Shown here: positions 353 to 28,213 of the stretch, piece after piece | How the letters are laid out: each line of letters starts with the position of its first letter | How positions within the stretch are numbered: position 1 is the first letter of the stretch | Assembly (NCBI GenBank): GCA_012646185.1 | Contig: GCA_012646185.1_4706.1 | Origin: a phage | DNA: 64,000 bases | Strand: one strand, 5' to 3' | Made by a program: the position numbers and the translations under genes | The notes under the pieces: model-generated | Databases searched by the model: none | The model's input: the letters and a program-made list of their open reading frames with translations, nothing else | Told to the model about the DNA's origin: nothing

Positions 353-2890
353 TTACTGCTCTTCACGTTCCAGCAGATACTCGGAAGCGGTAATACCGTT
401 TACCGTACGTACTGCTTTCAGACGAGTATCATCGCTCAGAATTACAGTAACAGATTGCAGACCTTTTACTTTGGTTTCGAAGGTCTTGAACACCTGATCC
501 AGCATACGAGCAATGCTTGGGTTGGTTGCAGCAGATGCGTGAGTGTAACCGCTCTGGTTCAGCTTCAGAATCTTGGCGTTGGTCGGTACGCGAACAACAA
601 CATGCGGACGCATCGCGAACACGCTGTGATTGAACCAGTAAGCATCGTTGCTATCTTCGTCGGTAACGATGTCTGGATTAACACGCATATCCTCGATAGC
701 CGCATCCGCCAAACGACGTTCGATTTCGTCAGCATCCAGAGAACCATCTTTCTCCAGTTCTGCACGATACTCACTCATGGCAACCAGATGACGTTCACGA
801 TTCGCTGCGGATTTTTCGTGAGCGGCTTTCAGGTAGTCATGCATGTTGTACAGTTCTGCCATGGAAAGACGAATGTTCCACTGACCTTCGCCGTCACGAT
901 TGCAGTAGAGACACTTCAGCATGTTGACCCAGGTATAGTAGCAATTGGAGAATTCATCTTCAATGAACTTCTGGTCCATTTTAAGATCGTGAATCAGCCA
1001 ACCGGACAGTTCTCCGATATCATCAACGAAGCTAGAGATGGTGGTTTCAGAGAAGTTCTTCGGTACGATACGTTTGATCAGCTTGTTAACGTCTTTGGTC
1101 ATGCTATCATTCAGGAAATGCCAGATACGCAGAGGAATGACATCTCGATACTGTTGCATGATCTGACGATAAGCTTTGATATCGTCGCTACGACCTTTAT
1201 CAATAGACAACGCATCCAGGAATTCATGGATTGCATCCAGCTCTTTGTCGGTATAGGTTCCCAGATAGGAATTGACGGTGGCCAGGAATGCTAATGCGTC
1301 GTTTTGGTTGACGTCGGTGTTGGTCTGCTGAATGATCGCTACTGAAGCTTTGGTTTCAGCATCCTCAACGCTTGACGCTGCGATCGCGTCGGTGACGGTA
1401 AACAGTTTCATTTCGCGCTGCTCACCGACAACGATTGGCTCACGCTGAACCGGCTTGTTAAGACTAACACGAACAACTTCTGCTTGCGCGATACGATCCA
1501 GTTTTGCCATTTCCTGCTCTGCCATACGACGAGCGGTTGGATCTGATTCAAGTTCGATGTATTCCACTTCTTCCTCCGTGAGGGATGTAATGTCAACAAT
1601 GGTTTCATGAAGAATTCCGTTTTCGTCGATACGTGCTCGACGAGCGAAGTGCCTGAAGTCATACAACGTCGGCCAACGACTATTAGGTGCAAAGTCTTTG
1701 GCTTTCAGACGCATCTGCATAAATTCTTCATGTTGAACAACACGACCGTAACGCTTAGCATCTTCGGTCGCATCAATTGGATTAACGGTCTTTGTTGCCG
1801 TAGCGGAACGAGCCGTACGAACCGGTTCAGGTTGAACGGGTTTCTGCTGCCCAGCCTTAACATGCCATTCTGGCTCTTCGTACTGCTCAGCAAATTGCTC
1901 AGCGGCTGCAAAGATATCGTTGATACCACCAATATCTCCTTCAGGATTTGTCGAGTAAATCCGTGGTTGTGGTGCCTCGTAACGCGGCGCTGTAGCAGCA
2001 GGTGCGTCATCAACGATAGGATCGTCATCACCAACATCATACAAACGGTTGAACGCACAATCCTTCGAATCAATGTACGATGGCGTTTGTGGTTGGACAA
2101 CCGTCGGCCGAGGTTGTGTGCCGTATCCTGGTGTTGTTGGAGCCATACCACGCATAACTGCTGGGTTAGGTTGGTATTGTGGTTGCGGGTAGGTTCCACC
2201 ATACATGGCGTACGCAGGCTGTTGCGGTTGACCATACCCGTTGCTAACCATCGCACTTGCTTGCGGACCACGATAAGTCATCCCCATCTGCATCACCTGC
2301 TGCTTCAAACCACGTGACTTCTGAGCGATTTGCGCTAGGCTTCCGCTTTTATTCAGCTGCGTGTACTTGTTCGCGGCTTCCGGGTTAATGCGTGATAATT
2401 CAATCGCGCGATAATATTCCGGGTACTGATTCGGTTCAAAGAGCCACGTTACAAGATGATACAGCGCAACTGTGCTCACAGCAGCAGAGACGATCTGGTC
2501 GTCGGACGCGTTCTGTGGCATCGGGTTGATGTAAGAGAACACGTTCCAACAACAGTCTTCAACAAGCGATTCCATCATCATATCGTTATTGGTATAACGT
2601 GCGACGAACTCGGTTTGTATTTTGTCTTGCTGAGCGAAGTCTTTCAGGACATTAAAGATGGCTTGACGGATTTTGACGATCGTCGCTTCTTGGGTGATGA
2701 AGTTATAGTTCTGCTGATATGAGGGTTGTTGGTATTGTGGTGGTTGATAGGCGTTATTCGGGTATGCGCCGTACGGCGATTGCTGATACTGTTGCTGACG
2801 AACCCGTTCAGCCGCATAATTAACCGTGCTCGTATAGGGGTTTTCGCTATAGCCCATTTGTTGATACATGTTGTTACTGCCATTATACAT
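353..2890 (-). CDS. large protein (845 aa) with Q/Y/P-rich low-complexity N-terminal regions; function unknown
   Basis: Long ORF; N-terminus and residues about 215-270 are runs of Q, Y, P, G (e.g. QQYQQSPYGAYPNNAYQPPQYQQPSYQQNY); AAGGA upstream of ATG; antisense ORFs 455..1294 and 1607..2317 are nested inside it. Confidence 0.8.
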   Translation of the reverse strand: MYNGSNNMYQQMGYSENPYTSTVNYAAERVRQQQYQQSPYGAYPNNAYQPPQYQQPSYQQNYNFITQEATIVKIRQAIFNVLKDFAQQDKIQTEFVARYTNNDMMMESLVEDCCWNVFSYINPMPQNASDDQIVSAAVSTVALYHLVTWLFEPNQYPEYYRAIELSRINPEAANKYTQLNKSGSLAQIAQKSRGLKQQVMQMGMTYRGPQASAMVSNGYGQPQQPAYAMYGGTYPQPQYQPNPAVMRGMAPTTPGYGTQPRPTVVQPQTPSYIDSKDCAFNRLYDVGDDDPIVDDAPAATAPRYEAPQPRIYSTNPEGDIGGINDIFAAAEQFAEQYEEPEWHVKAGQQKPVQPEPVRTARSATATKTVNPIDATEDAKRYGRVVQHEEFMQMRLKAKDFAPNSRWPTLYDFRHFARRARIDENGILHETIVDITSLTEEEVEYIELESDPTARRMAEQEMAKLDRIAQAEVVRVSLNKPVQREPIVVGEQREMKLFTVTDAIAASSVEDAETKASVAIIQQTNTDVNQNDALAFLATVNSYLGTYTDKELDAIHEFLDALSIDKGRSDDIKAYRQIMQQYRDVIPLRIWHFLNDSMTKDVNKLIKRIVPKNFSETTISSFVDDIGELSGWLIHDLKMDQKFIEDEFSNCYYTWVNMLKCLYCNRDGEGQWNIRLSMAELYNMHDYLKAAHEKSAANRERHLVAMSEYRAELEKDGSLDADEIERRLADAAIEDMRVNPDIVTDEDSNDAYWFNHSVFAMRPHVVVRVPTNAKILKLNQSGYTHASAATNPSIARMLDQVFKTFETKVKGLQSVTVILSDDTRLKAVRTVNGITASEYLLEREEQ

Positions 2891-2924
2891 TTCTTACGAT
2901 CCTTTTTATTTATTCGGTTATGTG

Positions 2925-4721
2925 TCAATCGATTATGTCGTGATCGTTAATTTCTACAATTTCTTCATCGAATCGACCGACGTCTTTCTTCAAGCCTGCA
3001 TTGGTTGCTGCAACGTCATTTGCAATTTGTGGGGTAATGATTAACCGACCGCGCTCATCGATAGGTGCGTACATACTGAACTTCTGACGTCCGGTTGGTT
3101 CGGAGTGTGGAAGATTCAGATAGCTTGCACAGAACGGGATGGAACCACTAACCAAACGACTCTCGTCAGCCAATGCAGCACCGCCTGCGTTTTGGCTCTG
3201 GAGAACAACATGCGTGCTCACTTTGAACAGCATGCAATCACCAGGTGACTGAATCGATGTTGCCACTTTCTCACGTTTATCACGATTGCTCTGGATATTG
3301 AGAATCGCTTCCGTTGCAACTTGATTTCGCAACGCCTTCTGTACATCGCGATTGGTCATCTCTTTACGGTTGTTCTGTCGTTTACCACGTTCTGTGGTTT
3401 TAAGATGGAACCCCAGTTTAAAGATGCTCTTACGCACATCCTCCATGACATATTCCAACACCATCAATTCCTTACCGAACATCGTCGTGGTGTCAACACG
3501 ACTCATTTCGATAGTGACATTGTCAATCAGATACGCCATAAATTCATAGAAGTCGTCGCAAGGAATATTTTCCTGTTTGAACTTCTTCTGCTGAATTTCG
3601 TCAACGTAAAGATCGAGACTGTCGATGTGGTGGTTTACATCACGCAACAAACGCGCATCCGCATTGTTGTTATTAAAGATAATCAAACCGAGTAATGTAC
3701 GCCAATGGTCTGGCGCATTCGCGAACTCTTCAACCGGATAGTCTTCCGGAAAACGATCGTAATAACGGTCGATGAGATACAAGAATGCACCGACAAGGCC
3801 AAGAACAATACGTTCCGTGCCTCCACGTCTTACAGCAATTTGAATATCAGGATGTTTGTAACGTACAGCGCTAGCGCTACGGCTTTTACCGCTTTTGCTG
3901 ATACTAAAGCCTTTAGGAATAACCCCCATGGTGCGATAGATTACCCATTGGTCACGCGGAAAATCACGTTCAGCAAGGTTCCGTCCGGTTACGGCTTCGA
4001 CACCTGCAAAACGTCGGAAACACTCACCCACCCCGTACTTCGCAAAGAGATAGTGACCCAGTGTGGTTACGCTGGTGTGGTTGATGTTGTCACCGTTCAC
4101 TTTACTTTGTTTAGTAAGATGATAGATTTGCGACCAGGGTAATGACAGGTAATGACGATAATCGATACCGGTCGGTGTATCGTTGCTCAGGAACTGATAC
4201 GGTGTACGTTTAACCGTGATTTTGTCACGCGGAAGCATGATGAACGCCATGTCTTTCGTGTAACTGATTACGGGGTCAGCGAGTACCGCACTGAGAATGA
4301 AGTTCGCACCACGTAGACGCATTTTACCACCCTGACCTACCGCGGGTAATAGGAGAGGATGTCGGATAATGCAGTAGTCCTTTCCGGGTTCACGACGGTC
4401 ACCTGATTCCATCGCGCCGTACCAGCGGAATTCTAGCATCACCATAAACACATCGGAAGGCGCAAGGTCGAAGGTCAGCTTACCGCTATCCTTCCCTTTG
4501 GTTTTCTTTCCTCCGCTTAAGTAGTGGAACTGTTCGCGGGCCATACAGCGACGCAGGCCATGATACACCAGATCCTTAGGTAAACTATCTTTGCTGTTCC
4601 GCCAAAGACGATCAACATAGGACTCAACATCTTGCATCTTATCGACGACGATGTTGCGTGCTATCTTCTCGTTCATCTTCGGTGCAAGCTCAGCGACAGC
4701 TTTGCAGAATCTAGGATCCAT
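2925..4721 (-). CDS. hypothetical protein (about 598 aa)
   Basis: Long ORF; start moved to ATG at 4719-4721 preceded by AAAGGAG at 6 nt (the ORF-track start at 4724 is a GTG one codon upstream); no catalytic motif recognised. Confidence 0.75.
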   Translation of the reverse strand: MDPRFCKAVAELAPKMNEKIARNIVVDKMQDVESYVDRLWRNSKDSLPKDLVYHGLRRCMAREQFHYLSGGKKTKGKDSGKLTFDLAPSDVFMVMLEFRWYGAMESGDRREPGKDYCIIRHPLLLPAVGQGGKMRLRGANFILSAVLADPVISYTKDMAFIMLPRDKITVKRTPYQFLSNDTPTGIDYRHYLSLPWSQIYHLTKQSKVNGDNINHTSVTTLGHYLFAKYGVGECFRRFAGVEAVTGRNLAERDFPRDQWVIYRTMGVIPKGFSISKSGKSRSASAVRYKHPDIQIAVRRGGTERIVLGLVGAFLYLIDRYYDRFPEDYPVEEFANAPDHWRTLLGLIIFNNNNADARLLRDVNHHIDSLDLYVDEIQQKKFKQENIPCDDFYEFMAYLIDNVTIEMSRVDTTTMFGKELMVLEYVMEDVRKSIFKLGFHLKTTERGKRQNNRKEMTNRDVQKALRNQVATEAILNIQSNRDKREKVATSIQSPGDCMLFKVSTHVVLQSQNAGGAALADESRLVSGSIPFCASYLNLPHSEPTGRQKFSMYAPIDERGRLIITPQIANDVAATNAGLKKDVGRFDEEIVEINDHDIID

Positions 4722-4760
4722 CACACACTCCTTTCAGAAAGTTGCTTAAGCAGATTAAAG

Positions 4761-6197
4761 TTACTTTTTCGATGACGCCTTTTCAAGAATCTTGAAAAAG
4801 GTCATACCTATACCGACAACGGCCGCGGTTATGCTCGCAGCGGCTTTCCAAACATCGACGTTACGTTGACGTCGCGCTTCTTCCGCTTCACGTTGTCTTT
4901 TTGCCTCTTCATCACGTCGACGTATCTCAGCAGCAAACTCGTCGTGCTTACGTTTGGCTTCTTCGTCTCGACGACGAAGTTCAGCGACGAATTCTTCATG
5001 TTTGCGTTTAGCCTCGTCATCACGACGTTTTAAATCAGCTTGATAATCTTCGTGTATTTGTTTACGTAGATCATCTTGACGCTTCATTTCGGCTTGGTGT
5101 TGTTCCATCCTACGTTTTTGTTCGTCTTTAAGCTGATCGAGTTCGGCTTTATGTTGTTCATCGCGCAGCTTTGCGTCGGCGCGATGCGCCTCATGCATCT
5201 GTGCGATAACTGCCTTGTGTTCATCCGCCATACGCCGCATTTCAGCCATCACCCCTTTAAGGGTTTCTTCTGATGCCTTACGTTCGTAGCTACGCTGGTC
5301 GAAATCATTTTTGTAGGCTTCTTTTTGGATGGGGTCGCGCCAATGCAATGCCGATTCACGTGTCGGAAAAACATTGTACTTCCACATCTCTTTTTCCAAA
5401 TCTTCGACCGGTACGAAGATGGAGTCATTATTCCCGAAGGTAACCAACATACCTGGCGCGCCTGCTCCATTCGTTGGTTTTATTTCGAACGCTTTCCCCA
5501 GCACGTTAACCCATAAGCTATACGGATTATGAAAGTCGGGTGGCGTCCAATGGATAGTGAGTTGCGTTCCGAGAATCCGGAAACCCTCTGTTTTTCCCGT
5601 CAAGCTCCGCGCGCACGTTGCGATGTAGGGGTGATCAATCCCTTTCGTAACGTGGTCTGCGCTTTTGTATTCTCCTTTAACTTTTACGATTGCCACGTTG
5701 ATTTGCGCGACATAAGCAGGTTGATTAAAGTTCAGCGTGTTGAGGTCAATTTGACATATTTCATCCAGCGTATCGTACCAGTCTTGCTGGTCTAATAGAC
5801 GCGGCATTTTCTCAGCGTTAACAATACGACGGATATGCGGTTTCCTTATCGCGTAACCTGTGCCGTTTTTAACACGGAGTATATCCCGACGTCTACCCGC
5901 GTAGACGAAGTTTCTGAATGCACCATTCGCATTAGATACGTCATGGCTGTCAACTATTACAGGACTACGAAATTTTGAACGTCGTACGATCCTGAATGTA
6001 TTGCCGTCCTCAACCCTACCAGGAATGTACTGGAACATATTGTCGGAGGTGATAACCAACACGGTATGGCCAGATTCATTAATACATGCCCATCCTAATT
6101 CCAGGTCATATAACGGTTCAGCATAACCGTCAATGCGATAAGCGTGCGTACCATCCCACGGTTCGAACGCGGTATCACATATTGGCATGGAGGGCAT
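4761..6197 (-). CDS. tail-anchored membrane protein with globular N-domain and long E/K/R-rich helical repeat region
   Basis: ORF with GGAGG 6 nt upstream of ATG at 6195-6197; C-terminal hydrophobic segment AAASITAAVVGIGMTFFKIL; preceding region is charged 17-aa repeats (RRDEEAKRKH[DE]EF.AE[IL]). Confidence 0.8.
   Translation of the reverse strand: MPSMPICDTAFEPWDGTHAYRIDGYAEPLYDLELGWACINESGHTVLVITSDNMFQYIPGRVEDGNTFRIVRRSKFRSPVIVDSHDVSNANGAFRNFVYAGRRRDILRVKNGTGYAIRKPHIRRIVNAEKMPRLLDQQDWYDTLDEICQIDLNTLNFNQPAYVAQINVAIVKVKGEYKSADHVTKGIDHPYIATCARSLTGKTEGFRILGTQLTIHWTPPDFHNPYSLWVNVLGKAFEIKPTNGAGAPGMLVTFGNNDSIFVPVEDLEKEMWKYNVFPTRESALHWRDPIQKEAYKNDFDQRSYERKASEETLKGVMAEMRRMADEHKAVIAQMHEAHRADAKLRDEQHKAELDQLKDEQKRRMEQHQAEMKRQDDLRKQIHEDYQADLKRRDDEAKRKHEEFVAELRRRDEEAKRKHDEFAAEIRRRDEEAKRQREAEEARRQRNVDVWKAAASITAAVVGIGMTFFKILEKASSKK
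4850..5030. repeat. imperfect about 51-bp tandem repeat inside CDS 4761..6197
   Basis: Two to three adjacent copies of a unit encoding RRDEEAKRKH-EF-AE; visible as repeated cgacgacgaagttcagcgacgaattcttcatgtttgcgtt-like blocks. Confidence 0.6.
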
Positions 6198-6346
6198 CGT
6201 CAACCTCCATCTGATTGAAAACTATCACGCATAATGCATTTCCCTTTTCTTGTTCTTATCGAGCCGACAGCCGACGGTTTCAGCATCGTTCCTAGCGCGA
6301 GAACGACCTTACGTGTTGTCTATGCCTTATTCATCGCAGGCGTCTG

Positions 6347-6435: not shown

Positions 6436-6534
6436 CTGACTTATGTATCACGGTGCCGGATGAATGTCCGGTGCAATGAAACCATCCGCAACGTTGTCGT
6501 CAAGAATATCGTCCAACGAAGCAGCTACGGTAGT

Positions 6535-8757
6535 TCAGTTAGTCTGAACCGGCAGCTTGATGTTTTCAGTGTAGACCTTACGCAGGTTCACAACGTTAAT
6601 CAGACCCAGCAGCGGGCAGTTGTTAACGAAGCGGCAGCGCGGCTGAACCATGGTTTCTTTAGAAACCTGACCGTTACGGGTAACCTGAGCAACAGATACC
6701 AGTTCCGGTACATACAGGAACATACCGAAGGTCAGCGGATCCGGAGAACCCTGGATACCACGAGACAGGGTCACGAAGATCTTATCGCGCAGCATGACGT
6801 TCGGGTTATCTACAACCACGAAGTTGAAGCTTACACCAACGGTACGGAAATCGCCATCGGTCTGCAGGAACTGCGGGATGTAGTTGTCAGTTGCTACTAC
6901 GCAACGCGGTTTCTCATCAGCGTTGGAAGACAGCAGCTGCAGAGCTGGCTGATAACCAGACTCGGAGTACATGCGGTATGCCATCTCACGAATCACGTTC
7001 ATGATCGCAGCAGACACTTCAGCACGACGTTCTGCAGTGGTGGTACCCTGAACAGATTTCTCCAGGTCCAGATTGATTTCTTCGAACCACGGACGGATCA
7101 GGTAACGACCGAAACCTTCGATCTGGATGTCGCCGAACTGACGGAAGCGAGAGGTCGCAACCGCTTTCAGTGCGTCTTTGTAGCTGAACAGTTTCTCAAC
7201 CATCAGGTTGTCGAAACGTGCGTTAGCAGCTTGGATCAGAACGTCCAGGTCAGCAGCGTTTTCTTCCCAATCCAGCGGACGAGGAATGGAGAACGGAGCC
7301 AGCAGGCCGATTGCGTAACGTTCTTGCTTCATGTTGAAGTCAAGGTGCTTACCGCGCTCACGACGGTTGCTGTTGTTACGGCGGATACGCAGTTCGTAAC
7401 CAACCAGTTTGAAGCTCAGGTCTTCAGCCAGCTGTTTGAACTCTTCGCCCTTACGCGGTTGTTCGATGTTGTCACGATCGACCAGACGATACAGTTCAGC
7501 GTTAGCGCCGTTAACACGCAGACCGGCTTTCTCTACGTTGGAAGAACCGTAAACTTCGATTGCCAGCTGAGCAGCGGATTTCGAATCGATGATGTCCTGC
7601 AGCGCTTCAGCTCGTGCACCTTTAACGTCAACGGTGTTCTCATCAACGAAGATGGAGTGGGTGTCGAACGCCAGGGTCATTTTGCGGAAGTCGCCTTCCA
7701 GGGATTTCTGGAAACCGTTGGTGATCAGACCAGATACGTCGAACGGTACGTAAGAGGTTTTGCTGTGCTTGGTAGATTTGATTTCCACCAGGATTTTGGT
7801 CAGCGTGATCTGGGCGTCCAGCGCGTCGGTGTTGTCGCTGTAACCGTTAGCCAGGATGCTATCGTCTTCAGCGATACCGATCATGTCGATCAGTTTATCA
7901 ACAGCCAGGTAAGACGTTTTATAAGTTACGCCTTTAATTTCGATGTCGCGCGGAGCAACGATAGCTTTGTCAACGAAGTACTGTGCGTTAGCATCGTCAG
8001 CACGATAGATCGGATGCAGATCGGTCACGTCGTTGGACAGAACGTCGTTGTACATGAACGCATCCAGCAGCGGACGACGTACCCAATCAGCCGGAGTACC
8101 GTCAGCGTTACGACGCAGGTGGTTGAACACCAGCGGACGACGGAAAGATACGTCGTAACCGATCTGGTTCGGAGCCAGAACGATGGTGTTGTACAGTTCG
8201 TTACCCATGCGGCTCAGACGAGAAGCCTTCACGTTGAACACAACGGAGTACGGCATCATGTCACGCAGTTCTTTCTGGTCGTAGGACAGCTGAACCAGTT
8301 CTTCAGATTCGCAACCGCAGGAATCAGCAGCCATCATGACGAAGTTAGAGCTGTCAACTTCACGGCCAGACGGAGTGGTGCTGATGTTCATGGAACGTGC
8401 TTGTTTAGCATATTCCACCGGGTTACCATGAGCCAGCATGATCAGTGCTGCTGCACGAGCCTGCTGTGCGTTCATGGTGAACAGCTGTTCTTCAATACGC
8501 TGCTTCTCTTCCGGAGTGGTGGTTTCGAAGCCCAGCATGGACAGAACCGGTTCTTCGGCTTTACGGATGTCGCTGCTGAAGCTCTTAACATCCATTTCGT
8601 TAACCAGTTTGTCCATGGATTTGAAATCAACCTTAGAAGCAGATTCCATAGACAGGAAGGTGTTCTCCAGACCTTTGTCTGCTGGTTTGCTACCATTAGC
8701 GGTCAGGAACTGGCGAGTGGCCGCGACCTGTTGGCTAAGAAGGGTTTTATCATTCAT
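6535..8757 (-). CDS. major virion structural protein, tentatively major capsid protein (740 aa)
   Basis: Strongest codon bias in the window (its antisense strand is stop-free for about 2.3 kb, ORF 6460..8760); AAAGGA 8 nt upstream of ATG; followed by hairpin; size fits jumbo-phage capsid proteins but no motif confirms the fold, and a tail sheath protein is an alternative. Confidence 0.45.
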   Translation of the reverse strand: MNDKTLLSQQVAATRQFLTANGSKPADKGLENTFLSMESASKVDFKSMDKLVNEMDVKSFSSDIRKAEEPVLSMLGFETTTPEEKQRIEEQLFTMNAQQARAAALIMLAHGNPVEYAKQARSMNISTTPSGREVDSSNFVMMAADSCGCESEELVQLSYDQKELRDMMPYSVVFNVKASRLSRMGNELYNTIVLAPNQIGYDVSFRRPLVFNHLRRNADGTPADWVRRPLLDAFMYNDVLSNDVTDLHPIYRADDANAQYFVDKAIVAPRDIEIKGVTYKTSYLAVDKLIDMIGIAEDDSILANGYSDNTDALDAQITLTKILVEIKSTKHSKTSYVPFDVSGLITNGFQKSLEGDFRKMTLAFDTHSIFVDENTVDVKGARAEALQDIIDSKSAAQLAIEVYGSSNVEKAGLRVNGANAELYRLVDRDNIEQPRKGEEFKQLAEDLSFKLVGYELRIRRNNSNRRERGKHLDFNMKQERYAIGLLAPFSIPRPLDWEENAADLDVLIQAANARFDNLMVEKLFSYKDALKAVATSRFRQFGDIQIEGFGRYLIRPWFEEINLDLEKSVQGTTTAERRAEVSAAIMNVIREMAYRMYSESGYQPALQLLSSNADEKPRCVVATDNYIPQFLQTDGDFRTVGVSFNFVVVDNPNVMLRDKIFVTLSRGIQGSPDPLTFGMFLYVPELVSVAQVTRNGQVSKETMVQPRCRFVNNCPLLGLINVVNLRKVYTENIKLPVQTN

Positions 8758-8906
8758 TGAAAGTATCCTTTACAGAATTAACTTATATAAGTCGGTCGAT
8801 AGACCATAGCGTACACGCGTGCATGCGCCACTATAGTATCAGTAAACACTTACCGTTATTGAGGTCGTGATACAACACTAAAAATGCCGCATAACTTTTC
8901 CCTACG

Positions 8907-18229: not shown

Positions 18230-21200
18230 TTACTTGTAGGCACCGCAATGGGCTTTGATGAGGAAAAGCACCGCTTGCATCGGTTTATTGAACTGTTGCC
18301 ATAACGTCAATGCCGGATGGAACAACCAATCTTCCAGACCAAGAACGATACCGTAGTTAACGACATTATTAACATCGTTCTCAACGTTGAGTTCGCTATC
18401 CAGGAATTTATCGATTGAACGCAGGGTCTGCATGGCGTTGTCAGCAATAAGCCAAGCTTCATGTGCTTCACGAGCCGCACGCAGCACTGCCTCCAGTTCG
18501 CTGATAGTAGCTACCGGTAATTCCTCACTGGTGAGGTCGTCAGAAACCGTAAACTGGCGATTGATACCGGTGTAGATCCACTGCATCAGTTTCGCTGCTT
18601 CCTCGTTCGGGTTGTTACGCGTTGTCGCATAAGTCGCGCTCACCTTCACGATATGCGTTTCACCAAGATACGCTTTGGAACCAACACCTTTACGATCGCT
18701 GTCTTTCCACGGTTGTACGGTAGCGACCATGAGCTTATCCCATTTCTGAATAGGAATACGCTTCAGACCAACAACCGATCCAGCGGATGTTTCGGACTGG
18801 TTGCTCTTCCGCACGTCGCTGAGCTCACGATCGATAGCAACGATTAATTCACGCGTCATGTTACCAAGCATTTTGATTTCACCCAACGCAGCGATGAGCT
18901 TCTTCACGTCAGTAACAGGTTCACCACCGATGGTAAGATGACGGATGAAACGTTTCAGAATAATCCGTTCTGCTGCTGGGTTACCACGACGCGCTTTAGC
19001 CAACGCTTGCTGTGTTTCGGCGAACAGCTTATCCCATGGAGCCGTAGCGGCGGTATAGTAACGATGGTTGGTTTCGATCCAGTTACCGATACGGTTGACC
19101 GCGCTCTTAACGGTATCCATGAATCCTTCCATCGCAATTTCGGTAGCTTCGACGTTACCCTGGAAGTTATCAGGACCGATTTCGCGTGCCGCTACCAGAA
19201 TACCTTCCACCGCACTCACCGCATGACGACCGATAGCCAGATTTCGCTGTGCTTCTTCAGCACGCTCAACGAATTCCACTACCGCAGGATCGTCAACGAT
19301 TTCCGCCTCGGCAACAGCACGCGTACCCGCATCACCTTCCAGCGTTTCGATAGTGACAACCGGATCGTTTTCACCGGCAACATCCTGATACTCTTCCTGT
19401 TTGAGATCGCCGTTATCAGCCGCTGCGACAGCGGTGAGTATACGGACGGTAACATCACCGAGTTCTTTTGCAGCGAATCCGTAAACGGTGCATGCTGTTT
19501 TTGCAAAGTTCATTAGAATGCGTGTACGTTTAACGATGTAACCAACGCCGTAGTCACTACCGCTATTATCGATGTCACGGATTAACTGCTCAGCCGTTTC
19601 TTGAAGGATAGATACTGACTTCAAGAGATCGTCTTCAAACAGTTTCTTCGACACCTCAACCAACATATCAGCATTGATGTTGGGTGGGGTTTTGTCGCCC
19701 TGTTGTTTCATCTCGCTTAATTCATCGCGGAACTTACTGATTCCATCCAAAGCGGCACTGGCGGTATGTCCGAACGCGGCAACTCCTGGCATTGTTGTTG
19801 CTGACAACATATCCGAATCGGCGTTTGGACTTTCGCCTTCTTTAAGATCCTTCAGCTGGTCGAAGAACTTGCGAGATGCTTCAGCGATACGTTTGCTGTC
19901 TTTCACCGCGTTTACGATTTTATCGACGGATTTAGCGTCGTTTGCAAGCAGCGTATCGAGTTTGTTCCATTCGACACCGACTTTCGTCGCATCCTTAGTA
20001 TCGCTTGGCGGAGGAAGCAGTTTTGTCACCGGAGTCGTGCGTTGTTCTTTGGTCAGCTTGTTGGCCTTCTCTTCGATTTTTTTCTTGTTAACACCAAAGA
20101 GATTTTTCAAACGCGCCACGAGGGCTTTTAAGAACTTCGCGACCGCTTCGTAAACCGATTTCAGAATCTGTTTAAAGCGACCCGGCTGCTTTTCCCCGTC
20201 TTCCAGATTGAGATCGCTGTTCAGTGCGACATCAAGCTGTTTGTACGATTCCATGATGTATTCGTCTTTGATTTCAGGACGAATCTCGAAGCTTTCCATC
20301 GGACCTTCAGCCGGACGGAATTCCATTTTCAGTTCGCCTTGCAGGGTAGGGTCGACAATAGCGATAGCTTCACCCTGACCATCAGCGTTAAAGCGTTCAG
20401 CGTAACGAGTACGGCGAACAATAACGCTCTTATCCCCATCAAGACGACGCACCACCATGGTGCCAGGAATGTACGGTTGTTCTGTTTCAATGACGGTTAC
20501 ATCTGTTTCACCCTCACCGAGAATAACAGATGCACGCTGTTCGACAACAGGAACATCTAATACACCACGGGCTTCCAGCTCTTGATGGATTTCGAACGAC
20601 TCTTGTTTCAGATCTTCATCTTCTTCGTTTTCGTCGTCTTCATCATCGTCACCTTTGGTGTTTTCATCATCCTTGGTGGTTGTGTCGTCGGTGGCACCAG
20701 CGTCAGCGTCGGTGTTAGCAGGTTCTTCGGACGCAGGTTCGGTGGTGTTGTCCTCCGTGGACGACCCGTCAGTGTTATCGACATCAACATCACCTTGCAG
20801 TTCTGTTTCCTGAGCAACTGCTTCGGCTTTCTGCTCGCCGGTATTACCATCATTAGCGTCGACAACAGGTTGTTCGTCAGCGACGGTATCTTCAACCTTT
20901 TCTACTTTCTCCACGACACGTTTAATCACGGTGACTTTGATGGGTTCTTCCGTTGTTTTGGTTTCTGACGTCACCTCGGCTGCCGCAGCCGCTGTTTCAG
21001 CAACAGGTTCTGCTTTTTCCGGTTCGACGACATTACCTTTAACACCTTCGGTGGTTTCTGCAGGTTGCGCTGCCTGTTCGATTTGCGCCGGATTGGTTGG
21101 ATCGATGGCGTTAGCCGCATCCTGAATCTTGTTCTTCAGGTTGTCGCGGTCAGCGTTAACGGTCGGGTCGTTGGTCACTTTCGGTGCCGGTGTTTCGGTC

Positions 21201-21616
21201 GGTGCGTTTGCCGGATACGGGTTCTTCGGCTCTTCGCCAGGTGCGGTCGGTACCGCGATCAGAACGAACGGTTGAACATCGTTACCGTCTTCCATGGTTA
21301 CGCCACCGTTGCTCGGTGTGAAACGAATTCGTAAACTACCATCAATAGGACGGGTCACAATAACAGCACGTACGACATCCTCACCGTTCTCATCCGTGCT
21401 ACGAATCACACGAACAGCGTCATCAACGGTAGCCCCTTCCTCGAGCGTATCTGATTCGATCGTCGCTTCGATGCTGTCTGGCCGTGCCGCTGTAGGTAAT
21501 GCGATCACTTGCTCTTCTTTATCAGTAGAAAGCGTTGCTTTGACTTCGATAGGTGTATCGCCGCTTTCCAGGTTAAGATGCGACTTACGCATCAGATCAG
21601 CTAACGATTTTTTCAT
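18230..21616 (-). CDS. large acidic virion-type protein (1128 aa)
   Basis: N-terminal about 330 aa are D/E/T-rich low complexity; contains ESFE-type motifs (LKQESFEIHQ, GPMESFEIRPEIKDEYIMESYKQL) shared with the downstream paralog array. Confidence 0.8.
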   Translation of the reverse strand: MKKSLADLMRKSHLNLESGDTPIEVKATLSTDKEEQVIALPTAARPDSIEATIESDTLEEGATVDDAVRVIRSTDENGEDVVRAVIVTRPIDGSLRIRFTPSNGGVTMEDGNDVQPFVLIAVPTAPGEEPKNPYPANAPTETPAPKVTNDPTVNADRDNLKNKIQDAANAIDPTNPAQIEQAAQPAETTEGVKGNVVEPEKAEPVAETAAAAAEVTSETKTTEEPIKVTVIKRVVEKVEKVEDTVADEQPVVDANDGNTGEQKAEAVAQETELQGDVDVDNTDGSSTEDNTTEPASEEPANTDADAGATDDTTTKDDENTKGDDDEDDENEEDEDLKQESFEIHQELEARGVLDVPVVEQRASVILGEGETDVTVIETEQPYIPGTMVVRRLDGDKSVIVRRTRYAERFNADGQGEAIAIVDPTLQGELKMEFRPAEGPMESFEIRPEIKDEYIMESYKQLDVALNSDLNLEDGEKQPGRFKQILKSVYEAVAKFLKALVARLKNLFGVNKKKIEEKANKLTKEQRTTPVTKLLPPPSDTKDATKVGVEWNKLDTLLANDAKSVDKIVNAVKDSKRIAEASRKFFDQLKDLKEGESPNADSDMLSATTMPGVAAFGHTASAALDGISKFRDELSEMKQQGDKTPPNINADMLVEVSKKLFEDDLLKSVSILQETAEQLIRDIDNSGSDYGVGYIVKRTRILMNFAKTACTVYGFAAKELGDVTVRILTAVAAADNGDLKQEEYQDVAGENDPVVTIETLEGDAGTRAVAEAEIVDDPAVVEFVERAEEAQRNLAIGRHAVSAVEGILVAAREIGPDNFQGNVEATEIAMEGFMDTVKSAVNRIGNWIETNHRYYTAATAPWDKLFAETQQALAKARRGNPAAERIILKRFIRHLTIGGEPVTDVKKLIAALGEIKMLGNMTRELIVAIDRELSDVRKSNQSETSAGSVVGLKRIPIQKWDKLMVATVQPWKDSDRKGVGSKAYLGETHIVKVSATYATTRNNPNEEAAKLMQWIYTGINRQFTVSDDLTSEELPVATISELEAVLRAAREAHEAWLIADNAMQTLRSIDKFLDSELNVENDVNNVVNYGIVLGLEDWLFHPALTLWQQFNKPMQAVLFLIKAHCGAYK

Positions 21617-26890: not shown

Positions 26891-28213
26891 TTACTGCTGT
26901 GCTGCGTCAGCCGGTTTCTCAGCCGCCTGGCCGCCGTACTCTTTCAGCATTTTAGCAACGCCATCCAGGACAGCGTTACCTGCCTGAACACCGTATTTCA
27001 TCAGACCGGTCTGCGGGTTCACATAGCAGGAACGTGCGTCTTTCAGCGCAGACAGTACAGCTTGAACACGCTGTTTTTCCTGAGCGGAAACTTCGCCTTT
27101 CTTAGACAGATCGGCTTCCATATCGTCACCGAATTTAACAGCGTCTTTGAAGCCCTGGGATTTCTTACCGATGTTGCCTTTCAGCGCCAGCAGTTTGTCA
27201 GCCAGTGCTTCAACACCGCTAACCGCAGCAGCCAGCTGGTTCAGGGACAGGACGGTAGCTTCAACTTCTTTTGCTTCGCCGGAGCGTTCCCAGGTTACTT
27301 TACCATCATTGGCTTTGAAACCCCAACCTGCCGGGCCAGCAACGTCAGCAATCGCCGGAGCGTTCAGTTTATCAGCGTACTCGGTGTGAGACTTAGCAAT
27401 AACGGTACCAACGAATTTATCAGCACGATCGTCAGCAGCCTTCATTGCTTTCTCGAAGGTGTCGGCGATTTTGGTCGCGCTGGTAACCAGATCGTCGCCA
27501 CCGGTGTAGCCTGAAACACCGCTACCCAGTTTAACTTTGGTATTTTTAGCAGTGCCTTTACGCTTGGCGATCATTTCTTTCAGTTTAGCAGCACGCGCTT
27601 TCAGTTTGGTCGCGCCGTCGAAGATGCGATCCATGAACTTCACGAAGGTTTCCCAGGAAGTCTTCAGGAAGTTCTTGATGGTTGCCCACAGTTTCTGCCA
27701 CCATTTTTGTTCTTCCAGGAAGATCATGTTGGTTGCATCGTAGCGGGAAGCGGAACCACCGAAGCTTTCGAAGGACGGCATGGTTTCCGGCATTTTGAAA
27801 CCGATAGTACCACACAGACGTTTCAGATTACGCATGTGTTCCTGAGCGGTCTGTGCAGACATACCACCGTCTTTCAGGTAGCTTTCGGTTGCAACAACGG
27901 TTTCCGTCAGTTCATCCATGGCATCATCCATGGCTTCTGCGGTTTCGTCGTCTTTTGCAATTTCGATAACAACAGAATCAACCTGCTCGATATCACCACG
28001 AACTTCGATAGCCAGTTCGGTTTCAGCTGCGGTATCTTCAGCGATTTCAGCACGTTCGGTCAGTTCAGCCACAACGTTTTCATCCGCTGCTGCAGCATCA
28101 GCTGCCGGTTCTGCTTCAACGGTTGCCGCTGCATCCGGATCGATCTCAGCAGCCAGTTGAACCAGCTGTGCGTTAGATGGATTTGCGACAAGACGATCAA
28201 AAATAGAAGGCAT
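26891..28213 (-). CDS. highly expressed paralog-family protein (440 aa), putative abundant internal virion or scaffold-like protein
   Basis: Strong codon bias (antisense frames open: ORFs 27062..27514, 27707..28234); N-terminus MPSIFDRLV and SFESFGG...KLWATI match the family; Ala/Glu/Lys-rich. Confidence 0.8.
   Translation of the reverse strand: MPSIFDRLVANPSNAQLVQLAAEIDPDAAATVEAEPAADAAAADENVVAELTERAEIAEDTAAETELAIEVRGDIEQVDSVVIEIAKDDETAEAMDDAMDELTETVVATESYLKDGGMSAQTAQEHMRNLKRLCGTIGFKMPETMPSFESFGGSASRYDATNMIFLEEQKWWQKLWATIKNFLKTSWETFVKFMDRIFDGATKLKARAAKLKEMIAKRKGTAKNTKVKLGSGVSGYTGGDDLVTSATKIADTFEKAMKAADDRADKFVGTVIAKSHTEYADKLNAPAIADVAGPAGWGFKANDGKVTWERSGEAKEVEATVLSLNQLAAAVSGVEALADKLLALKGNIGKKSQGFKDAVKFGDDMEADLSKKGEVSAQEKQRVQAVLSALKDARSCYVNPQTGLMKYGVQAGNAVLDGVAKMLKEYGGQAAEKPADAAQQ

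Follow-up and report, generated by a model that had tools for sequence, protein, structure and literature searches.

Here we describe a gene at positions 353 to 2890, on the minus strand, of a 64,000-nucleotide stretch of phage DNA (contig GCA_012646185.1_4706.1 of GenBank assembly GCA_012646185.1; hereafter the window). By synteny and profile–profile homology, its product of 845 amino acids (aa) is the Goslar-lineage ortholog of JADA (phiKZ gp124, Pa36 gp316). The protein is thus not new in kind: it is a divergent member of a family published in 2026, and its second low-complexity region (LCR2) is the segment called the 'disordered linker' in that family. Both this region and a Tyr-rich N-terminal tail (LCR1) were modeled with low AlphaFold confidence (predicted local distance difference test, pLDDT) and are probably intrinsically disordered. 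We consider it likely that identity, domain plan and disorder, taken together, are assigned correctly. The gene and the parts of its product are as follows.

353..2890, minus strand: complete coding sequence, 845 aa plus stop; ortholog of Goslar gp038 (YP_009820723.1) and member of the JADA / phiKZ gp124 family
2705..2890, minus strand: LCR1, residues 1–62, N-terminal tail rich in Q, Y, N and P (composition; pLDDT 31–42)
2291..2704, minus strand: N-terminal all-alpha domain, residues 63–200, hydrophobic (predicted helices, pLDDT 56–74)
2075..2290, minus strand: LCR2, residues 201–272, rich in Q, P, G, Y and M and nearly uncharged; first part of the inter-domain linker (composition; pLDDT 26–30, no secondary structure)
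1781..2074, minus strand: second linker part, residues 273–370, acidic and rich in Ala and Pro, net charge −9 (composition, alignment and AlphaFold)
356..1780, minus strand: C-terminal domain, residues 371–845 (hhalign homology to JADA's C-terminal domain)

Over its first 8 kb, the window had 97.7% DNA identity to the nucleus-forming jumbo phage Escherichia phage vB_EcoM_Goslar, and by this measure it is a Goslar-like chimallivirus. The protein itself was 98.5% identical (tblastn) to Goslar gp038, which is annotated as a hypothetical protein. The genes run in the order gp041 (major head protein), gp040, gp039 ('polymerase'), gp038 and gp037, all on the minus strand. The portal gene gp036 lies just past the left end of the window; gp038 stands between the capsid and portal genes. 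Two features lie immediately upstream of it.

2891..2924, minus strand: spacer of 34 nt that separates the stop codon of the upstream gene from the start codon and carries an AAGGA ribosome-binding site at 2900–2904
2925..4724, minus strand: upstream gene for a non-virion RNA polymerase (nvRNAP) beta-like subunit, Goslar gp039, phiKZ gp123-like (phrog_2943 'polymerase', E 7e-120)

No promoter-like or terminator-like site was found in the spacer on the strand of the gene, and scans for sigma-70 promoters and terminators returned fewer sites than in shuffled sequence, none of them relevant. The product has 845 aa, compared to 852 aa in Goslar, because it lacks, near window position 1830 (between residues 353 and 354), a seven-residue unit, PEPAQVK, that Goslar and all other clade members have. 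An antisense open reading frame (ORF) of 279 aa (455–1294, plus strand) lies opposite the gene and another of 766 aa (6460–8760, plus strand) lies opposite the major capsid gene; both are most likely non-coding shadows.

Judged from its sequence only, the protein looks like an orphan. A Pfam search gave sub-threshold matches only (Cas9_C_2 and DUF4186), a PHROGs search gave no match, and tblastn against 50,697 phage records found nothing besides Goslar. A word-indexed protein search retrieved four close relatives (79–98% identity). Exhaustive phmmer comparison with 1.84 billion representatives yielded two clusters, the sole addition being P0005, a protein of 774 aa that was 35% identical. P0005 is encoded on a 71-kb contig with the same gene order, beside a PhiKZ-type capsid gene. 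A search for related loci returned three Goslar-clade contigs for the protein and none for P0005.

The locus told more. Using the nvRNAP beta-like subunit as tblastn query, we obtained matches in 218 phage records. In 20/20 other lineages that were opened, a protein of unknown function (516–919 aa) was encoded directly downstream of this subunit. The lineages included 201phi2-1, phiKZ-like Bobae, PhiPA3, Eowyn, Deimos-Minion, RP12, FLC9, PCH45, pTD1, FBKp24, Yaphecito, Aeromonas PS1, Miami, sm033, Noxifer, MIZ-Pa99, EarlPhillipIV, RSF1 and Yong MS32. The order major capsid protein, gp122-like, nvRNAP beta, JADA candidate was shared by 21 lineages and the metagenomic relative P0005. The annotation of 201phi2-1 gp204 notes its similarity to phiKZ gp124, and the ortholog table of Prichard et al. 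2023 (supplement 3) groups Goslar gp038 with RAY gp004, 201phi2-1 gp204 and PhiPA3 AEH03563.

Homology was then visible at the level of profiles. Pairwise BLAST among the orthologs gave a network of weak, collinear matches, and their multiple alignment contained common C-terminal motifs. When the Goslar group was compared by hhalign with ten other lineages, the C-terminal parts aligned with a probability of 99.0% (E 6.9e-18, 356 columns), placing Goslar-group residues 402–841 onto phiKZ-type residues 369–720. The phiKZ-type proteins make up phrog_15010 (unknown function), which the Goslar group did not reach in the PHROGs search; none of them has a Pfam domain. A word-indexed search with a 12-lineage alignment retrieved two FBKp24-like proteins only. 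The profile of the other lineages matched a single PDB entry, 9rp3 chain A, 'Gp316/JADA' (721 aa), with an E-value of 1e-224. As judged from these searches and loci, the family is specific to Chimalliviridae and is always encoded directly downstream of the nvRNAP beta-like gene. The near identity of the window to Goslar and the return of only two clusters from the exhaustive search fit this restriction.

Two apparent matches were considered and discarded. A PhiPA3 shell-associated protein known from ChmA and ChmB pull-downs is the product of gene 138 (the phiKZ gp122 ortholog, corresponding to the neighbor gp040), and the JADA ortholog is that of gene 140. The 'gp38' of a preprint on early-infection vesicles refers to phiKZ gp38, which is unrelated. 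In the PhiPA3 record (HQ630627, 25936–28042), gene 140 is annotated with 261 aa and is overlapped by the opposite-strand gene 141 (484 aa). This annotation probably reflects a frameshift in, or misannotation of, a full-length JADA gene.

JADA has been described as an early, abundant, essential and Chimalliviridae-specific protein (Muralidharan et al., Mol Cell 2026; PMC12931631). It consists of an N-terminal domain (residues 1–170), a disordered region (171–269) and a C-terminal domain of novel fold that forms a rigid homodimer (PDB 9RP3); the N-terminal part gave no cryo-electron microscopy (cryo-EM) density. Purified full-length JADA proved soluble and dimeric in gel filtration and mass photometry. 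A fusion of mScarlet3 to Pa36 JADA was diffuse before infection or when expressed alone and afterwards formed foci at the early-infection (EPI) vesicles. The C-terminal domain alone activates the Sir2 NADase of Avs5 (Sir2-STAND), and Pa36 JADA does so with three Pseudomonas aeruginosa Avs5 clades (PMC12931631). When PHIKZ124 was knocked down with antisense oligomers, one of two oligomers caused a weak plaque phenotype, and phage transcripts at 30 min were strongly affected; strong effects on transcripts were otherwise seen on knock-down of ChmA, nvRNAP subunits, PicA, KZ122 and KZ151 (Gerovac et al. 2025; PMC12571901). Early expression, essentiality and EPI localization are known for the Pa36, phiKZ and Churi orthologs.

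The Goslar protein resembles these orthologs in its locus (on the strand of the nvRNAP beta-like subunit gene and immediately downstream of it, with the capsid and portal genes on either side), in its size (690–920 aa in most, 516 and 656 aa in two) and in its plan of an N-terminal domain, a long disordered linker and a large C-terminal domain. It differs in that its sequence is only ≈ 15–17% identical to the phiKZ-type protein. Furthermore, the Goslar group adds the 62-residue tail, the acidic stretch and an insertion in the C-terminal domain, and its linker is rich in Tyr rather than in Gly and Met. The experimental properties are known from orthologs outside Goslar and Escherichia coli.

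The initial annotation had described a large phage protein with two prion-like segments rich in Gln, Tyr, Pro and Gly, and composition analysis bore this out. Residues 1–60 contain 22% Q, 18% Y, 12% N and 10% P; residues 205–275 contain 18% P, 14% Q, 11% Y and 11% G. The fraction of charged residues is 0.06 in LCR1 and 0.04 in LCR2, and both segments have a prion-like composition, that is, enrichment in Q, N, S, G, Y and P with few charged or aliphatic residues. The richest 30-aa window, residues 31–60, consists of Q, Y, P and G to 77%. Of the window's 99 ORFs with 100 aa or more, none had a higher value (runner-up 50%), and 0/2000 shuffles of the protein's own sequence attained it (maximum 63%). 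All 20 aromatic residues of the two segments are Tyr, with no Phe in either; the 12 in LCR1 are 3–10 residues apart (mean spacing 5.5). Tandem Repeats Finder detected no tandem repeats in the coding DNA, so the short degenerate repeats noticed earlier exist at the protein level only. Two other proteins encoded in the window have low-entropy stretches, which are acidic, unlike the uncharged segments described here: a 440-aa protein (26891–28213, minus strand) with an Ala/Glu/Asp-rich N-terminus (residues ≈ 20–80) and a 1128-aa protein (18230–21616, minus strand) with an Asp/Glu/Thr/Asn-rich stretch (residues ≈ 280–340).

Structure prediction of residues 1–380 from a shallow alignment of 6 sequences gave a pLDDT of 31–42 for LCR1, 56–74 for the helical domain and 26–41 for residues 202–380, in which a single short helix (323–335) was modeled; the mean was 44, and 35 for the full-length protein modeled from 5 sequences. 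A confident prediction of either segment as an ordered domain, named by the initial annotation as contrary evidence, was not obtained. Moreover, LCR2 lies at the position of the JADA linker that is devoid of cryo-EM density, and the earlier view that the segments are typical of disordered regions is probably correct. Residues 273–370 are probably disordered as well. The domain layout proposed earlier needs revision. The two segments followed by a C-terminal domain were recognized, but the helical domain that separates them (63–200) was overlooked, and the globular part of ≈ 500 aa placed directly after the second segment is in fact preceded by the acidic stretch and comprises ≈ 475 aa. Likewise, the composition is unusual within the window, as had been claimed for phage proteins in general, but not within the family, as described below.

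A low-complexity linker was present in 21/21 lineages. It falls into two composition classes, with a flavor specific to each lineage. In most lineages the linker is polar and studded with aromatic residues (Q/N/G/S/P/Y/M): Q/P/G/Y in Goslar, G/Q/P/M in phiKZ and Q/N/S/G in 201phi2-1. The Eowyn linker contains 27–28% Q and ≈ 10% Y over 136–180 aa, and that of FLC9 contains 31% G with GGGW-type repeats. PCH45, FBKp24, Yaphecito and RSF1 have the second class, rich in Arg, Gly and Asp with many RG/GR dipeptides and thus similar to Arg-Gly-Gly (RGG) domains. In the Goslar protein, LCR2 and the acidic stretch (residues 201–370) together sit where the JADA linker sits, and LCR1 is an extra N-terminal tail; tails of other flavors occur in some lineages, e.g. 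a Q/M/P tail in Deimos-Minion.

Seven Goslar-clade sequences were compared. LCR1 varies in length, with a net difference of 13 residues (14 gap columns), including a QQPPYQPQQ-type insertion, in P0003, P0004 and IMGVR_UViG_3300011560_000001 (L013). All eight Tyr residues of LCR2 are invariant in the seven sequences. Relative to L013, LCR2 had 0.153 amino-acid-changing and 0.333 silent changes per codon, compared to 0.239 and 0.275 in the folded N-terminal domain, the lowest ratio of amino-acid-changing to silent changes within the N-terminal module. By these counts, LCR2 is under purifying selection and is more constrained than the folded N-terminal domain within the Goslar clade.

The same comparison revealed an abrupt change in divergence. 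DNA identity between the window and L013 was only 68–87% at positions 1751–2890, and 91–99% in the flanks and in the C-terminal domain; within the gene, the drop was confined to the first 380 codons. Silent divergence was 0.18–0.33 per codon in the N-terminal 380 residues and 0.05–0.09 in the C-terminal domain. Raised silent divergence points to recombination and not to faster protein evolution alone, and it indicates that the N-terminal 380 residues form a mosaic module that is exchanged by recombination. Three points made here are absent from the JADA paper: the low-complexity linker in all lineages, the purifying selection on LCR2 and the recombining N-terminal mosaic. The similarity of LCR1 in composition to Sup35 N and FUS and the candidate motifs of the linker, both described below, are likewise not in it. 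That paper contains no discussion of the Goslar ortholog (Goslar is named only for a staining method), of linker composition or of condensates (PMC12931631).

Outside the two segments, three further features can be placed on the protein.

2006–2047, minus strand: motif RLYDVGDDDPIVDD, residues 282–295, in the acidic linker part (sequence and alignment)
1886–1924, minus strand: predicted short helix INDIFAAAEQFAE, residues 323–335, in the acidic linker part (AlphaFold)
626–898, minus strand: lineage-specific insertion of ≈ 90 aa, predicted helical, residues 665–755, in the C-terminal domain (alignment and hhalign)

The motif that follows LCR2 reads RLYDVGDDDP in Goslar, SLYDVP in 201phi2-1 and AAYDVP in the phiKZ type; the short helix reads DIFAAAEQFAE in Goslar and DLYNLAERFA in P0005. 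Both the motif and the helix are candidate interaction motifs within the linker. The acidic part also holds a P/Q/K segment, the site of the missing PEPAQVK unit. The helical domain (63–200) is placed as the N-terminal domain of JADA is. In a Foldseek search of BFVD with its model, which was of moderate confidence, the top matches were weak and fell on uncharacterized phage proteins of 663–846 aa, one of them from Erwinia phage RisingSun (E 6.6e-4 and 4e-3, TM ≈ 0.2).

Several observations weigh against the assignment and against the significance that we attach to the segments. The Goslar-group profile alone found no match in the PDB and phmmer added only one further cluster, so the link to JADA rests on profile–profile comparison and synteny. 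Homology of the helical domain to the N-terminal domains of the other lineages had no hhalign support (probability 0.5%, E 0.12), even though the best alignment was collinear. Because the alignments were very shallow (5–6 sequences), low pLDDT is weak evidence for disorder. Aromatic positions were better conserved than the remaining ones (18/20 versus 82/114), a difference that was not significant (Fisher p = 0.10). A review of June 2026 still lists JADA as a protein of unknown function. In the literature, we found no expression, essentiality, localization or other experimental result for Goslar gp038; papers on nvRNAP import, CRISPRi-ART, transposon mutagenesis and size-exclusion chromatography–mass spectrometry contained nothing on the protein.

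What could the segments do? We propose that LCR1 and LCR2 would act as intrinsically disordered tethers. Since the C-terminal domain dimerizes, each particle would carry two long, uncharged, tyrosine-studded sticky arms tipped with helical domains. Evenly spaced Tyr residues in an uncharged polar background could engage in numerous weak interactions, whether with RNA, ribosomes, proteins of the vesicle or shell, or one another. Such contacts may help gather the early gene-expression machinery at the vesicle, rather than build a free-standing prion or condensate. This multivalent-contact role is offered tentatively, as a possibility that falls short of being probable. A broader version, more speculative still and in our judgment unlikely, would see in the JADA linker a conserved low-complexity domain like those of RNA granules, with a prion-like (Q/N/G/Y) composition in the majority of lineages and an RGG-like one in the others. 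Present in two copies per dimer, it would form a multivalent layer at the EPI vesicle, and perhaps later at the nucleus, that captures phage mRNA, ribosomes or newly made nvRNAP. The N-terminal module of tail, helical domain and linker would then be swapped between phages as a unit to match the host or a partner.

The simplest alternative is that the segments are passive spacers of which only length and flexibility matter, their composition being a by-product of relaxed constraint and replication slippage. Linker sequence is indeed unconserved between lineages, where composition, position and length (≈ 35–180 aa) vary; LCR1 and the P/Q/K segment contain insertions or deletions, and the locus diverges most in the N-terminal 380 residues. 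However, within the Goslar clade LCR2 accumulated fewer amino-acid changes than the folded N-terminal domain, although its silent divergence was as high or higher, and none of its Tyr residues was replaced. Furthermore, the linkers of all lineages fall into two sticky composition classes rather than resembling generic Gly/Ser/Ala/Glu spacers, and the DNA lacks a repeat structure that would suggest recent slippage. We therefore regard mere spacers as rather doubtful. If the segments were no more than spacers, the finding would come down to a commonplace disordered linker in a family that already has a name.

At the other extreme, the segments could be genuine prion-like domains, able on their own to cause phase separation or aggregation in a concentration-dependent way, with the protein scaffolding a condensate in the infected cell. 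The composition of LCR1 had a cosine of 0.90 to yeast Sup35 N and of 0.80 to the FUS low-complexity domain, its aromatic residues are regularly spaced and it has almost no charge. Dimerization through the C-terminal domain would supply valency, the prion-like and RGG-like linkers of the relatives represent the two classic RNA-granule flavors, and an ortholog forms foci during infection (PMC12931631). Yet the mScarlet3 fusion of that ortholog was diffuse in uninfected cells, with foci only at EPI vesicles, the purified protein was a soluble dimer (PMC12931631), and the Goslar segments are short (62 and 72 aa). The Pa36 linker contains fewer aromatic residues than that of Goslar (5% versus 10%), so the Pseudomonas data may not transfer in either direction. 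On balance, we find autonomous condensation unlikely.

A role in the virion, as an internal head, scaffold or injected protein whose low-complexity parts act in capsid assembly or ejection, is suggested by the location between the major capsid and portal genes. It is also suggested by the recovery of gp038 from CsCl-purified Goslar virions (26 peptides, 28% coverage, an estimated 17–39 copies, ≈ 25; bioRxiv 10.64898/2026.04.21.720040, Table S4). However, the same preparation contained PhuZ and chimallin, neither of them a virion component, at ≈ 170 and ≈ 126 copies (Table S4). Abundant proteins of the infected cell thus co-purify, and low-copy 'virion-associated' calls, that of gp038 included, may reflect this. 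In addition, gp038 is absent from the 28-protein atomic model, 201phi2-1 gp204 was not flagged as a virion protein by mass spectrometry although its neighbors were, and the orthologs are early proteins whose site of action is the EPI vesicle. A virion function is very improbable.

Finally, the protein could serve in host take-over by imitating the G/Q/P-rich linker and the acidic tip found in the bacterial single-stranded DNA-binding protein (SSB), so as to bind replication or division proteins. The composition of LCR2 had a cosine of 0.78 to the E. coli SSB linker, and DVGDDDPIV after LCR2 resembles the SSB tip DFDDDIPF. Van den Bossche 2014 is cited in another paper as having recovered phiKZ gp124 with DnaX/FtsZ baits. 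We give this explanation hardly any weight: binding of the SSB tip requires a free C-terminal Phe and the acidic motif of gp038 is internal, the acidic run is unconserved in other lineages (only Y-D/E-V/A persists), and the EPI-vesicle localization of the ortholog points elsewhere.

The segments can be compared with better known systems. Like Sup35 N and residues 1–163 of FUS, the Goslar segments are rich in Q, N, G, S, P and Y, nearly uncharged and carry a Tyr every few residues; unlike them, they are shorter, share no homology with them and belong to a family in which an ortholog is diffuse when expressed alone. FG-nucleoporins, named after their Phe-Gly repeats, offer an analogy only: they too have aromatic residues in uncharged polar disordered sequence on a structured anchor at a compartment boundary. 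The Goslar protein does not have FG dipeptide repeats, however; its aromatic residue is Tyr, and neither LCR1 nor LCR2 contains an FG dipeptide or the nucleoporin motifs FxFG and GLFG. ChmC is likewise a chimallivirus protein with a folded domain and a disordered region that acts where a phage compartment borders on the cytoplasm, but it is an unrelated gene and fold and acts at the nucleus with experimentally shown RNA binding.

If the broader, RNA-granule version of the proposal held, the layer formed by the JADA linker would be a bacterial-virus counterpart of eukaryotic ribonucleoprotein or pore-proximal assemblies. Nucleus-forming jumbo phages cannot do without JADA, which a widespread bacterial immune sensor targets, and their early transcripts, made inside a lipid vesicle, have to reach the ribosomes. 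The C-terminal domain that is sensed by Avs5 is nearly invariant while the N-terminal half recombines. A sticky linker kept in every lineage examined, together with a separately evolving N-terminal half, would provide a concrete, mutable handle on the half of JADA that is not sensed, and Goslar with E. coli is genetically the most tractable system in which the segments can be put to the test.

The neighboring gene also deserves mention. The Goslar gp040 ortholog (window 4761–6203, minus strand, 480 aa) is the ortholog of phiKZ gp122 and PhiPA3 gene 138. Pull-downs of ChmA and ChmB, as well as proximity labeling with ChmA, recovered the PhiPA3 gene 138 protein (Enustun 2023), and knock-down of KZ122 also disturbs phage transcription (PMC12571901). 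In the protein of the window, an 18-aa unit, RRRDEEAKRKH(E/D)EF(V/A)AE(L/I), occurs three times within a C-terminal coiled-coil region, and the C-terminal tail is hydrophobic (VWKAAASITAAVVGIGMTFFKIL). In 10/11 other lineages, the most hydrophobic 19-residue window of the gp040 ortholog was at or near the C-terminus. This pattern of hydrophobicity suggests that the C-terminus of these proteins is a tail anchor or an amphipathic helix.

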